Source: an uncultured Methanosarcinales archaeon
GTDB taxonomy: Archaea > Nanobdellota > Nanobdellia > Woesearchaeales > CAXGTL01
Direction of reading: 5' to 3'
Assembly: GCA_964645705.1 (NCBI GenBank)
Contig: CAZYAB010000007.1
Coordinates: 466-64,465, forward strand
DNA: 64,000 nt
A program made the translations under genes and the position numbers. Position 1 is the stretch's first letter. The number at the start of each line of letters is the position of its first letter. Below are positions 29,546 through 64,000 of the stretch, one piece after another. A model generated the notes under the pieces. It was not told the origin of the DNA. It ran no database searches and was given only the letters and a program-made list of their open reading frames with translations.

Positions 29546-29653
29546 GGGTCTGTGGTCTAGTGGCTATGCTTGTTTGCACCACAAATGACTTCTCGTTGAC
29601 TAGCCAATATCTCAGAACCGAGACGGTCGCCGGTTCAAGTCCGGCCAGACCCA
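29546..29653 (+). tRNA. tRNA-Val(GAC) with two BHB introns (D-loop: 29566-29584; 37/38: 29602-29617)
   Basis: Acceptor GGGTCTG/CAGACCC with A73; anticodon stem TCTCG/CGAGA; T arm GCCGG-TTCAAGT-CCGGC. BHB helices GUGG/CCAC and UUGA/UCAG. Confidence 0.88.
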
Positions 29654-41165: not shown

Positions 41166-41203
41166 ATATGATATTTTTGTCGCAGTGGTTTATAAGGGTT
41201 TTG

Positions 41204-41316
41204 GTATGTGCATGGCTCGTTCGCACTTTCCATGTGCATTACTGTTGCATGGAAAGTCCTGATAGTGTTATCATATAATGGGTGCTCACTGGCCTTAACA
41301 GGCGCCATGCACATAC
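41204..41316. ncRNA. Unrecognised structured RNA motif, copy 1
   Basis: 13-bp terminal stem, CTTTCCA/TGGAAAG hairpin and conserved linkers shared with 54730-54830. Confidence 0.7.
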
Positions 41317-41362
41317 ATGTTTTGGTTAGGTTTATATATAATTAATTCTTTATAAAATATAT

Positions 41363-54166: not shown

Positions 54167-54670
54167 TTAAACACTCTTCTGCTTTCTAAACTTGCCTTTA
54201 TAATTAACTTTACCAACAGTTCTACAGAATATGATCTGACAAATCCTTTCACCAGCATACAACTTAACAGGCATTTCACCTAGATTCCTTATCTCAAGAA
54301 CTTGTACATTGTTGACATTAGGCTGAACAAAATTAGCAGTCACGTGAACTGCTAAACCCAATCTAGCAAACCTGCTTCTACCTGATAAGAATGCACATAT
54401 GTCTTTAGGTAGCTTGATTCTTTCTTTTGTCACGCCAAGAATAAACTCATTAGGATTAAGAACAACTGATTTAGATGTAAACAGTTTTGTATACTTCTTA
54501 TAATTAGTTCTTTCTTTTATATCAATGATCTTGTCACATTTAAACTCTCTAAATTTATTATCTAGGGTTAAGTCATATGATGCTCCTGAAAGATTTTTCT
54601 TAGAAAAAGGAGTGATCTTTATTCTCCCTAGATTAATTTCCTTAAGAACCTCTTTTTTTGTAAGTATCAT
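54167..54670 (-). CDS. dcd: dCTP deaminase
   Basis: ASYDLTL, GRSRFARLGL.VH.TA, LEI.N.G, ICQI.F. Confidence 0.92.
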   Translation of the reverse strand: MILTKKEVLKEINLGRIKITPFSKKNLSGASYDLTLDNKFREFKCDKIIDIKERTNYKKYTKLFTSKSVVLNPNEFILGVTKERIKLPKDICAFLSGRSRFARLGLAVHVTANFVQPNVNNVQVLEIRNLGEMPVKLYAGERICQIIFCRTVGKVNYKGKFRKQKSV

Positions 54671-54729
54671 TTTTGCCTCTTTCTTTATCGTATTAGAAGC
54701 TTTGTAATATATAAATATATTGTTTTATA

Positions 54730-54830
54730 GTGTGCGTGGTTCGTTCGCACTTTCCAAGCAAAATAATGACACATGGAAAGCCCTGATAGTAAATATCTAT
54801 GCTTACTGGCTTTACAAGCACCACGCACAC
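54730..54830. ncRNA. Unrecognised structured RNA motif, copy 2
   Basis: Same architecture as 41204-41316 with compensatory changes. Confidence 0.7.
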
Positions 54831-55010
54831 ATATTCATATACTGCAACCGTTAGATTTATAAATGCCTGATTTTTTCTAAGTACTACGTATATCAAGGGA
54901 TATGCAGGTTTTAGTTTTAAGGGCTATTTAACTAAAGCTCGCATAAACTGGAGATAATATATTTTTTCTTTTTATATTGTCTCTTTGTAATATTATAAAG
55001 GTGAAAACAA

Positions 55011-55466
55011 ATGGCAAGAATGCATTCAGGAAAAAAAGGAAAATCAGGTTCAAAAAAACCCAGCAAGAAAAAGGTTCATGCATGGATTAGGTACAAACCA
55101 AAAGAAATAGAATTATTAATATCAAAATTGGCAAGAGAAGGACACAGTGCATCACAAATAGGAATAGTGCTAAGAGACACATATGGTGTTCCTGATGTAA
55201 AGAATATTGTTGGTAAAAAAATTTCTAAGATCTTGAGTGAAAAAAAATTATTACCTAAATTACCAGAAGATTTAATGGCACTAATAAAAAAATTGATTGC
55301 AATAAACTCGCACTTAGACATTAATCATAAAGACAGAACAGCTAAAAGAGGGTTGCAATTAACAGAATCAAAGATCAAAAGATTAGTCAAATATTATAAA
55401 AAGACTAAAAAATTACCAGAAGACTGGAAATATGATCCAAAGAGATTGAAGTTTTATCTGGAATAA
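55011..55466 (+). CDS. rps15: 30S ribosomal protein S15 (uS15, archaeal S15P/S13e type)
   Basis: MARMHSGKKGKSGS, SQIGIVLRD.YG, LPEDL, ESKI.RL.KYYK. Confidence 0.97.
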   Translation: MARMHSGKKGKSGSKKPSKKKVHAWIRYKPKEIELLISKLAREGHSASQIGIVLRDTYGVPDVKNIVGKKISKILSEKKLLPKLPEDLMALIKKLIAINSHLDINHKDRTAKRGLQLTESKIKRLVKYYKKTKKLPEDWKYDPKRLKFYLE

Positions 55467-55562: not shown

Positions 55563-56489
55563 TTATTCATATTTTATCTTTAATAGTTTTGCCAAAGGCA
55601 AACACACTGTAGAGTGTTTTAAAATATGGATTATATTGAATAAAAGGTCTTGGTCTTTTTGTTTATATATTTCAACTTGTAGGTCATTAACAGATTTTGA
55701 CAATTTGTTTATGCCTTCATATTTAGGATCAAACAATTGTTCATAATAATCTCTTAAAACCTTGTTAACTTTTGTAAGCAGTTTTATTGATATATTCCTT
55801 TTTCCTTTTAATTCAGCAATCTTTGCATAACTACTGCCAATTAATTTAAGATTATTTATCAAAAGGATGTATCTTTCTCTTTCTTTTATTGGTATGTTTG
55901 CTGTTCTTAAAAGTTTAGTAGCATATCTAAGAAACTTTCCAGCATTATAATATTTTATTGTGAATTCTGATGCATATTCTGTGTTGTCAAAATTCTTGGC
56001 ACTACTGTTCTTAACACATTCTGCATTTTCTAGTAAAAGAAGAAAGCCTCTTCTGAATGTATTTTTAAATGAAGATGAATCAACGTCTGCGATTTCCTCT
56101 ATTACACACATTCCTGGTTTGTCTTCTGTGATCTCTGTACCAATCAAACATTTAACAAGATTTTCTATTGCAATGAATGTGTTTATTTCTTTTTTTCTTG
56201 TATGAATATATTTTGATGAAGTTGGTTTGTACTTTATTCTCATTTTTTTAAAACCACTCATAAATAAGTTTAGAATAACATAATGAACCAATGTTGTTGT
56301 CTCGAGTTTTGTCACGTCTATTGATACTTCTTCTTTGATGTTTTTGCCTTTTCCAGTTATAAATAATCCTTCTTGTTTTTCAAAGATGTCTAGTTCATCT
56401 CCTTTTTTAATATGATTTTGTTTAGCCCATTTACTAGGTAATGAGATCATTAAAGTAGATGGACCTATCTTGCTAATTTTTCTTTTCAT
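55563..56489 (-). CDS. AbrB-PhoU-type regulator (archaeal phosphate uptake regulator family)
   Basis: RKISKIGPSTLMISLPSKWAK...KKGDEL N-terminal AbrB domain, then helical domain. Confidence 0.8.
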   Translation of the reverse strand: MKRKISKIGPSTLMISLPSKWAKQNHIKKGDELDIFEKQEGLFITGKGKNIKEEVSIDVTKLETTTLVHYVILNLFMSGFKKMRIKYKPTSSKYIHTRKKEINTFIAIENLVKCLIGTEITEDKPGMCVIEEIADVDSSSFKNTFRRGFLLLLENAECVKNSSAKNFDNTEYASEFTIKYYNAGKFLRYATKLLRTANIPIKERERYILLINNLKLIGSSYAKIAELKGKRNISIKLLTKVNKVLRDYYEQLFDPKYEGINKLSKSVNDLQVEIYKQKDQDLLFNIIHILKHSTVCLPLAKLLKIKYE

Positions 56490-56657: not shown

Positions 56658-57116
56658 TTGTATATGAATAAAAAAGATTTAAAAATATTATCAGAACTAA
56701 GACAAAATGCTAGGATGTCTTTGACAAAGATGAGTAAAAAGACTCAGATACCTGTTTCTACAATATTCGACAGGTTAAAACTAAATGAAAAGAACATAAT
56801 AATCAAACACACAAGTTTGCTAGACTTTAATAAGCTTGGATACAACACAAGAGCAAACATTACTATAAAAGTAAACAAAGAAGACAAAGAAACACTAAAA
56901 CAGCATTTAATAAGACACCATCAGATAAATTCTGTTTACAAGATCAACAATGGCTTTGACTTCATGGTAGAAGGAATATTCAAACACATAATTGAAATGG
57001 AAGACTTTTTAGAACAATTAGAACAAAAATTCAACATAATTGACAAAAAGTCATTCTTTATAATAGAGGATCTGAAAAGAGAAGCTTTTATGAGTAATGT
57101 TAATCTGGTTTTTTAA
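56658..57116 (+). CDS. Lrp/AsnC family transcriptional regulator
   Basis: KKDLKILSELRQNARMSLT.MSKKT.IPVSTIFD.L; INNGFDF. Confidence 0.9.
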   Translation: MYMNKKDLKILSELRQNARMSLTKMSKKTQIPVSTIFDRLKLNEKNIIIKHTSLLDFNKLGYNTRANITIKVNKEDKETLKQHLIRHHQINSVYKINNGFDFMVEGIFKHIIEMEDFLEQLEQKFNIIDKKSFFIIEDLKREAFMSNVNLVF

Positions 57117-63244: not shown

Positions 63245-63269
63245 AAAAACCATGCTAAACAAGATCACA

Positions 63270-64000
63270 TTAGATTCGAACTATTGGTAACTGCGGGCTG
63301 AATATCTCGCCGAAGCTTGATACTTACACCCCAGTCCCATCAACCTCCTGTTTTAAGAGTATTCTACGGTGTCTCTTTTCAAGAAGGGCTTCGTGCTTAG
63401 ATGCATTCAGCACTTATCCTTTAGCGCGTAGCTGCTTGGCATACCTTATCAGATAACCAATAGACCAGCGGCGCCGAGAGCCAGTTCCTCTCGTACTATG
63501 GCTCCCTTTCTTTCAGACACCAAACATCTCCAGTAGATAATAAACAAACTGTCTCACAACGTTCTGAACCCAGCTCACGTTCCCTTTTGATGGGTGAACA
63601 CCCCCACCCTTGGGCGCCTGTGCACGCCCAGGTTAGGAAGAGCCGACATCGGTGAAGCAAGCCGCGCCGTCGATTTACTCTTAACTCTAAGTCATAACTA
63701 ACGCAGGAAGTTTTAACAAACCAACTGATATAAAGTTATTTGTCGCTTAGAGCTAATAGGAGCTCTCGGGCGCGACAACTCTATTATCCCCGGAGTAACT
63801 TTTCAGTCATCTCAGACTCCCATTAAAGAAGTACTGAGGTTCGCTAGACCAAACTTTCGTTTTTGAAATTCGTATTATTGGGATTCCAATCAGGCTAACT
63901 TTTGCTCTTGCACTCTACATCGGATTTCTGACCCGATTGAGTTAACCTTTGGGCCCTGCTGATAAATTTTCAGCAGGATGCCACCCCAGCTAAACTGTCT
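63270..64000 (-). rRNA. rrl: 23S rRNA, 3' portion (domains V-VI), runs off window; 3' end approximate
   Basis: Reverse complement contains GAUGUCGGCUC, GUGAGCUGGGUUCAGAAC, sarcin-ricin loop AGUACGAGAGGAAC and GCAUCUAAGCACGAAGC. Confidence 0.97.
63675..63757 (-). other. 83-nt BHB intron in 23S rRNA helix 89
   Basis: Interrupts GAGCUCCU|AUCGAC; BHB GCUC/GAGU with CUA and AAA bulges; 11-bp stem UUAGCUCUAAG/CUUAGAGUUAA. Confidence 0.88.

Follow-up and report, generated by a model that had tools for sequence, protein, structure and literature searches.

The window, by which we mean the whole 64,000-nucleotide stretch of DNA analyzed here, contains the 3' part of an archaeal large-subunit rRNA gene at positions 63264-64000, which marks it as archaeal. 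Within it, the minus-strand gene dcd and the plus-strand gene rps15, both confirmed by Pfam, enclose a short segment that a sequence-only reading had described as the second, shorter copy of an unrecognized RNA motif, at 54730..54830. The covariance model R1, built on 14 copies that BLAST and a regular expression had found in the 1.29-Mb genome (G000), matches at that place with a score of 98.6 bits (E = 2e-21), and we refer to the match as copy 2 (Table 1). Copy 1 lies 13.5 kb away in the same orientation, between a Fis-type HTH gene (minus strand) and a P-loop NTPase gene (plus strand). The two copies align with 82% mean column identity and have in common the blocks UCGUUCGCAC, CUUUCCA/UGGAAAG, CCCUGAUAGU and CUYACUGG, the terminal helix and a small hairpin that precedes the 3' arm, so that the distance, orientation and shared linkers all stand as first described. 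Copy 2 is the shorter of the two because 8 nt, corresponding to the small P3 hairpin, are missing from its center. Both copies are listed on the minus strand, which probably bears the fold; the sequence-only reading and R1 used the plus strand. Fold z-scores of copy 2 are -3.2 (plus strand) and -3.5 (minus strand).

Table 1. Features of the two copies in the window, of the flanking genes and of the family fold. Positions are those of the window unless a contig or alignment A4 is named.
Feature	Position	Strand	Details
Copy 2	54729-54831 (G000, C7:55194-55296), 103 bp	minus (probable fold strand)	R1 covariance-model match
Left terminal inverted repeat, 5' arm of P1, GTGTGCGTGGT	54730..54740		pairs with 54820-54830; 11/11 complementary
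Right terminal inverted repeat, 3' arm of P1, ACCACGCACAC	54820..54830
Conserved junction TC-GT-TC-GCA	54741..54749		covarying pairs 16:86, 19:83, 20:82, 21:81
Helix Pj in copy 2	GT 54743-44 with AC 54805-06
Helix Pa in copy 2	GCA 54747-49 with TGC 54800-02
2x2 internal loop of copy 2, TC/TY			reads tandem G·A on the minus strand
P2 hairpin, CTTTCCAA ... ATGGAAAG	54750..54780		8 pairs; variable 15-nt loop
Central region: CCCTGATAGT, then P3 deletion site (8 nt missing), then TGC-TT-AC-TG	54781..54808		alignments
P4 hairpin, GCTT-TAC-AAGC	54809..54819		abuts right terminal repeat
dcd (dCTP deaminase), left neighbor, outside element	54167-54670	minus	Pfam DCD, 2.1e-43
rps15 (ribosomal protein S15/S13e type), right neighbor, outside element	55011-55466	plus	Pfam Ribosomal_S13_N and Ribosomal_S15
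Copy 1	41205-41315 (G000:C7:41670-41780), 111 bp	minus (probable fold strand)	R1, 116 bits
Target-site duplication of copy 1, left, GTTTTGG	41198..41204
Target-site duplication of copy 1, right, GTTTTGG	41319..41325
Family P1	A4 columns 2-12:101-111		95.5% of cells paired; 11/11 pairs with double changes
Family UC linker, 2 nt	A4, after P1
Family Pj	A4 columns 15:87 and 16:86		16:86 is UA in 86 copies, CG in 8
Family 2x2 loop UC/UC	A4, between Pj and Pa
Family Pa	A4 columns 19-21:81-83		19:83, 20:82 and 21:81 all covary
Family second junction	A4		carries P2, pair 56:80 and P3
Family P2	A4 columns 22-29:46-53		8 pairs, all with double changes
Family P3 mini-hairpin	A4 columns 63-64:69-70		loop UUAC; 64:69 is CG 41, UA 33, GC 10
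Family P4	A4 columns 90-93:97-100, abutting P1		98% of cells paired; 4/4 pairs with double changes

The motif was unrecognized in the first account and remains without a match in Rfam 15, a comparison that takes in self-cleaving ribozymes, riboswitches, tRNA and 5S rRNA: the window gives no match at the gathering score, and at E values up to 10 only noise (best E = 0.81, 15.6 bits). An apparent ATG...TGA frame in copy 1 was considered as a small open reading frame (ORF) and discarded, as the frame is not conserved across the family because loop lengths vary by single bases. Adjoining rps15 is a divergent gene pair (55563-56489, minus, and 56658-57116, plus) whose 53-54% identical paralogues at G000:C2:198391-200448 lie beside another copy of the element; Pfam assigns to these paralogues an AbrB/MazE-type domain and an Lrp/AsnC regulator.

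Covariation and the strand that folds

Alignment A4, with 100 distinct sequences and 112 kept columns, has its structure drawn from mutual information and resolves into a fully nested fold with two three-way junctions (Table 1). Among copies collected with a structure-aware model, which favors well-paired copies, and with several of the paired cells stemming from degenerate copies, pairing reaches 94.6% of 3022 cells, compared to 70.8% in column shuffles and 33-42% when partners are slid by 1-3 columns. Double changes occur at 30 of the 31 pairs, so that homologues with further covariation, on which the sequence-only reading had made its motif depend, do exist. A4 was fitted to P1, P2 and P4 of R1; Pj, Pa, pair 56:80 and P3 are absent from that model and are independent discoveries. 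The P2 loop, 15-17 nt long, varies across the family.

Compensatory change is also seen in five pairs of syntenic copies with the same orientation, where 27 of 146 paired positions differ, 20 of them compensatory, 1 one-sided and pair-keeping and 6 disruptive, and where 99 of 247 unpaired positions differ. Such change in place could also be mimicked if copies undergo gene conversion with one another; at one spacer (site 2), syntenic copies have identical terminal repeats but different P2 types. In copy 2 itself, P1 is perfect although it differs from the family consensus, the changes being compensated.

Covariation of the terminal repeats alone could come from co-evolution of two transposase-binding ends. 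Extended to the whole element, this idea would make it an ordinary DNA-only MITE, with a fold that is a by-product of end co-evolution, correction of quasi-palindromes by template switching and gene conversion and that has no function in RNA or as a single strand, an account we consider unlikely. It is possible to regard P1, Pj and Pa together as a single long, imperfect terminal inverted repeat, but P2, P3 and P4 fall outside this symmetry of the ends and covary freely, as pair 64:69 illustrates (Table 1). The syntenic pair with the same terminal repeats and different P2 types points to exchange between copies; on the other hand, the many covarying variants of Pa within one genome misfit recognition by one protein. 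Similarly, the flanking features are symmetric (TATA-like motifs 36 and 33, n = 85) and orientation is without bias, whereas the strand asymmetries of the element (A·C 47 to G·U 19, T-runs 23 to 3 and a GNRA loop on one strand) are unexpected for duplex DNA. As there are local hairpins and coexisting Pa variants, end co-evolution for a transposase is insufficient to account for the covariation, which indicates that a complex single-strand fold is under purifying selection.

The same asymmetries bear on the strand. Transition-type mismatches on the plus strand, the one first read, are A·C in 47 cases and G·U in 19, a ratio that is reversed on the minus strand (p = 0.0008). On the minus strand, the P3 loop becomes GUAA, a GNRA tetraloop, and the UC/UC loop becomes tandem GA/GA, features which we take to carry weight as strand markers. 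T-runs are termination signals in archaea, and 23 of 100 copies contain a run of at least five on the plus strand versus 3 of 100 on the minus strand, which is also A-rich. Mean folding energy is -35.5 kcal/mol for the minus strand versus -34.6 for the plus strand, with the minus strand better in 59 copies and the plus strand in 41 (p = 0.015); for copy 2, the values are -36.8 and -30.4. Promoter-like and terminator-like features in the flanks are symmetric and give no help. The statistical lean, a modest one, is toward the minus strand of the window as the structured strand, so that the motif was rightly placed by the first account and probably read on the wrong strand. If the folded molecule were instead single-stranded DNA, the covariation would be identical and most of the asymmetry between strands would be expected as well.

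Several other readings of the fold were tried and rejected. An initial pseudoknot model, with 60-63:86-89 crossing 19-22:80-83, was abandoned, as 16:86 and 15:87 pair instead and 60:89 is barely above chance. Identity with tRNA or 5S rRNA was dismissed, the 5S gene being elsewhere and the invariant stems and loops being unlike those of tRNAs, and inspection against consensus motifs, together with the lack of an Rfam match, spoke against reading the junction as a hammerhead, K-turn or loop E. In a K-turn, tandem G·A pairs come after a bulge of 3 nt. On the opposite strand, a K-turn or L7Ae-binding motif was likewise rejected, as GA/GA is flanked there by Watson-Crick pairs (15:87 and 16:86) and has no 3-nt bulge.

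Mobility and distribution of the family

The element is bounded by terminal inverted repeats of 11-12 bp, complementary in 95.5% of cells among 100 distinct copies, and some copies stand between direct repeats. Exact flanking repeats of at least 8 bp are found in 18 of the 85 copies with enough flank, versus 0.7 expected when each left flank is paired with the right flank of another copy. Anchored 9-mers agree at 9/9 in 11 of 85 copies and at 8/9 in 3 (expected 0.01 and 0.74), which puts 14 of 85 copies at 8/9 or better versus 0.75 expected. A clean duplication is present in only about one copy of five or six, and its length clusters at 9-10 bp, mostly at 9 bp. The flanking repeats are AT-rich, often TATA-like and different from copy to copy and are therefore target-site duplications.

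Comparison of orthologous sites among the four species of the genus (G000 to G003) extends this picture. Copy 1 lies between direct repeats (Table 1), and the orthologous spacers in G002 and G003 lack the element and hold the target once. For copy 2, no target-site duplication is recognizable, with 5/9 identities between the flanks; beside dcd, G003 has no element, and G002 has one in the opposite orientation with its own 9-bp duplication, TGTATAAAT. Copy 2 is an old member of the MITE-like family, its fold intact and its target duplication lost. For about 6 of the 21 copies in G000, a congener has the element in the corresponding intergenic region, and 4 of these look orthologous, with the same orientation. 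One shared spacer (site 5) holds two clearly independent insertions with different duplications, and in another (site 1) the element points one way in G000 and G002 and the other way in G001 and G003. The element is mobile DNA with the hallmarks of a MITE: it is small and noncoding, has terminal inverted repeats and target-site duplications, is present in multiple copies and differs in presence and absence between genomes. Of the mobile RNA that the sequence-only reading had proposed, the mobility holds; RNA as the moving form draws no support, the terminal inverted repeats and duplications of ~9 bp marking a DNA element.

It is quite improbable, given these signals, that the copies are stand-alone genes for small RNAs, trans-acting regulators or guides with the P2 loop as recognition part, which were multiplied by duplication and bear the signs of mobility incidentally. 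Such genes would suit the conserved fold with its variable loop of 15-17 nt, and in some cases a copy is retained at a syntenic position by as many as four species. However, target-site duplications far above chance, empty sites and independent insertions all speak for transposition, and turnover is high, with ~6/21 copies shared by spacer and 4 that look orthologous. TATA-like motifs 21-30 nt upstream of either end could be promoters of small-RNA genes, but the peak is equal on both sides, as fits outward promoters of the neighboring genes.

The sequence-only reading knew two copies and proposed a genome-wide count; R1 finds 21 in G000. The three other species of the genus have 15, 49 and 15 copies, the 49 in a genome of 1.5 Mb. 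Outside the genus, matches are few in number and come from three other families of the order. R1 matched 5 of 61 genomes in a sample spread over 58 families of the order, among them G005, from another family, with 5 weaker copies; 4 of 151 genomes in a wider search of the order, among them G094 with at least 5 copies; and 2 of 151 in a search of the class, among them G285 with 1 copy. Counts in the large searches are lower bounds because only 25 candidates were scored per genome. None of the genomes from other orders in the class sample matched R1, and the distribution is patchy and so far confined to one order. In all, seven genomes are positive and roughly 300 negative. In a pattern scan of genome contigs, 12 of 80 loci among the matches listed were true copies, all in two metagenome-assembled genome records; a metagenome scan, with 0 of 80 loci true among the matches listed, is uninformative on distribution. 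BLAST against phages and plasmids gave no match to the element, and a pattern scan of viral contigs gave 0 matches.

Across the family, the element measures 103-167 bp, with roughly 110 bp typical, which leaves no room for a transposase gene, and has no coding capacity. About 10 members reach 155-167 bp and carry one or two extra hairpins of ~50 nt, placed centrally or just before P4 (long members include G000:C12:8796-8958 and L092, L105, L099, L106, L071, L091, L078 and L095). The single G285 copy (L378, G285:C4:5654-5785) has terminal repeats of the TATGTGCATAG type, as do genus copies such as L044, and its flanks hold a direct repeat of 17 bp (ATTATTTTGGTTTTGCT), not ~9 bp. Two further observations were made beside copies in G000. 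A (TTTTA)n microsatellite of ~60 nt abuts a minus-strand copy just upstream of C1 119972, and a 178-nt spacer upstream of another copy (G000:C8:41500-41677) contains GTTCGAAT, a T-loop-like block within an inverted repeat, which may be an undetected RNA gene or a tRNA fragment.

Gene context and the mobilizing enzyme

To the sequence-only reading, the functionally unrelated neighbors of the two copies spoke against a metabolite riboswitch, and the family bears this out. For the 75 copies with both neighbors called, crude ORF calls, with ten copies spanned by an ORF call, give 25 in the same direction as the genes, 24 opposite, 20 between divergent genes and 6 between convergent genes. The orientation of the element relative to genes is random, and a riboswitch or cis-regulatory leader acting on the adjacent gene, here dcd or rps15, is therefore effectively ruled out. 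A compact junction fold with invariant junction bases is what one would find in an aptamer, and the element is often less than 60 nt from a gene start; yet it flips between species at the same spacer (site 1), has unrelated neighbors, is separated from the gene start by a TATA box in several copies and reaches 49 copies per 1.5 Mb.

The ends of the element usually lie 40-60 nt from outward-pointing gene starts, and TATA-like starts peak 21-30 nt from both ends (the 36 and 33 given above, n = 85; loci L025-L119). We read these peaks as the neighboring genes' own promoters, and an insertion is probably tolerated only if it falls immediately upstream of a core promoter. Alternatively, the peak may reflect a real target preference for promoter-proximal DNA. 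Two copy-rich contigs of G002 carry ordinary chromosomal genes, with Pfam domains in 13 of 19 ORFs and none transposase-like.

A fixed duplication of ~9 bp suggests, from the properties of insertion sequence (IS) families, a staggered-cut transposase of the DDE type. Nine Pfam families were searched, comprising seven transposase DDE/integrase families, one TnpB-type domain and reverse transcriptase. PF01609, PF00665, PF07282, PF00872, PF03400 and PF01610 gave nothing at the curated cut-off in any of the four genomes of the genus, of which G002 is rated 100% complete, and the same is true of PF12762 and PF13358, which were searched in G000 only; metagenome-assembled genomes often lose IS copies. 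No convincing longer element bounded by the same terminal repeats was seen in G000, and among its high-identity multicopy proteins the 8 paralogues scanned comprised 6 with unrelated Pfam domains and 2 with none, with no recognizable transposase.

We also weighed the idea that the element is a retro-mobile structured RNA, similar to a SINE, with the terminal helix as an RNA stem and copying via RNA by target-primed reverse transcription. Selection on a single-strand fold, the presence of duplications and the lack of a DDE transposase match among the families searched would all agree with it. It is nevertheless very improbable: PF00078, the reverse transcriptase family, had no match above the cut-off in the four genomes of the genus, the lengths of the duplications fall around 9-10 bp instead of spreading over a wide range, and the element has exact inverted-repeat ends, as in DNA transposons, and no A-rich or other 3' tail. 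One weak PF00078 match was rejected as a methyltransferase of the Trm5 type. In a 611-aa ORF of G002 (L255:1087-2922, contig C3), Trm5/TYW2 methyltransferase domains are joined to a TIM barrel similar to xylose isomerase (AP_endonuc_2), which is an unusual fusion or insertion.

Mechanism and relation to known elements

As a whole, the data are best explained by a nonautonomous, MITE-like family with a conserved single-strand fold, present in a few Woesearchaeota-type lineages, a reading to which we assign a probability of roughly 70%. We propose that a gene-free element, ending in inverted repeats of 11-12 bp that form the terminal helix of the first account, would have to be moved by an enzyme supplied in trans, probably a DDE-type transposase with a staggered cut. 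Its insertions lie in AT-rich DNA between genes, most often 40-60 bp upstream of a gene start, and ~9 bp of target is duplicated. Compensatory substitutions keep the fold, even in old copies without target duplication. The fold probably acts at the RNA level, in transcripts that arise by read-through or from promoters in the flanks, where it may keep the insertion harmless or useful or may keep the element mobile.

It is possible, if on balance unlikely, that the fold represents a new class of structured RNA or single strand needed for RNA-assisted or structure-guided transposition, or that a dispersed family of small RNAs has arisen from a mobile element. The first would imply a transposition enzyme outside the transposase families recognized here, and the second a mobile element turned functional-RNA family in genome-reduced DPANN archaea.

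Among known elements, the closest comparison in archaea is with SM1-SM4, small noncoding families of 25-44 copies each that have terminal inverted repeats, are intergenic and mobilized in trans and are tied to known IS families. The Woesearchaeote element is likewise small, noncoding, multicopy, intergenic, archaeal and bounded by terminal inverted repeats; it differs in that searches with nine Pfam families found no partner IS and in that its interior is under structural selection. We know of no conserved nonpalindromic fold with covariation described for SM1-SM4. In bacteria, Correia/CREE elements of Neisseria, ERIC, RUP, BOX and Rickettsia palindromic elements are ~100-150 bp in length, have inverted ends and lie near genes, and their transcripts fold and can affect expression. 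The present element is similar in size, inverted ends and gene-proximal insertion, but while those elements are essentially one long hairpin from end to end, it has two three-way junctions, local hairpins with a GNRA-type cap and invariant junction bases, and it is archaeal.

By its duplication of ~9 bp and short terminal inverted repeats, the element resembles IS4-type DDE transposons (Tn5, Tn10 and IS231) and their MITE derivatives, which have short terminal inverted repeats and duplicate at least 9 bp of target; unlike in that group, the four genus genomes have no PF01609 at the curated cut-off. Omega RNAs (IS200/IS605 TnpB/IscB) and bridge RNAs (IS110) are also conserved RNA folds encoded by mobile elements, and the Woesearchaeote element's own DNA likewise encodes a conserved fold, probably of RNA. 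However, IS200/IS605 and IS110 have neither terminal inverted repeats nor 9-bp duplications and carry the RNA beside the enzyme gene, whereas the element described here has both; no TnpB-type domain was found in the four genus genomes, and no such Rfam family matched the element.

A review names SM1-SM4 as archaeal MITEs of Sulfolobus solfataricus, lists further archaeal MITEs for Sulfolobus, Halobacterium, Haloquadratum and others and states that MITE transcripts form stable stem-loops (PMC10969869). A census gives "a Woesearchaea genome" 105 MITEs per Mb, among the highest archaeal densities, so that MITEs of Woesearchaea are already in print as counts (PMC11602168). The part of that census drawn on here has no family description, fold or covariation, and its supplementary sequences may include this family. 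Our literature search returned no structured RNA or MITE family of this kind described in DPANN archaea, and, as far as it shows, a mini-transposon with an intricate nonpalindromic fold kept by compensatory change is new for archaea.

The fold is preserved in this way even in old copies and between syntenic copies of different species. In DPANN archaea such as the Woesearchaeota, genomes are tiny and there is pressure on each intergenic base, yet one genome of 1.5 Mb holds 49 copies. Which enzyme moves the element, given nine Pfam families without a match at the cut-off, and why a fold is needed make up the puzzle. The element provides a small, well-defined structure to probe, whether in RNA or in single-stranded DNA, and a marker for strain-level insertion polymorphism, and it is a warning to motif hunters that intergenic covariation can stem from mobile DNA.

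A separate observation concerns the tRNA genes of G000, which is rated ~95% complete. Only 6 matches exceed the Rfam cut-off (for example, C4:45366-45437 and C7:30011-30118, the latter at window 29546-29653), and ARAGORN reports 1 tRNA without an intron search and 6 with it, of which one is spurious; the window has none by this tool. Congeners yield 10 and 6, and two complete single-contig genomes of the order yield 14 and 38. Most tRNA genes of G000 must be in a form missed by Rfam and ARAGORN, and visible T-arms suggest long or noncanonical tRNA introns.
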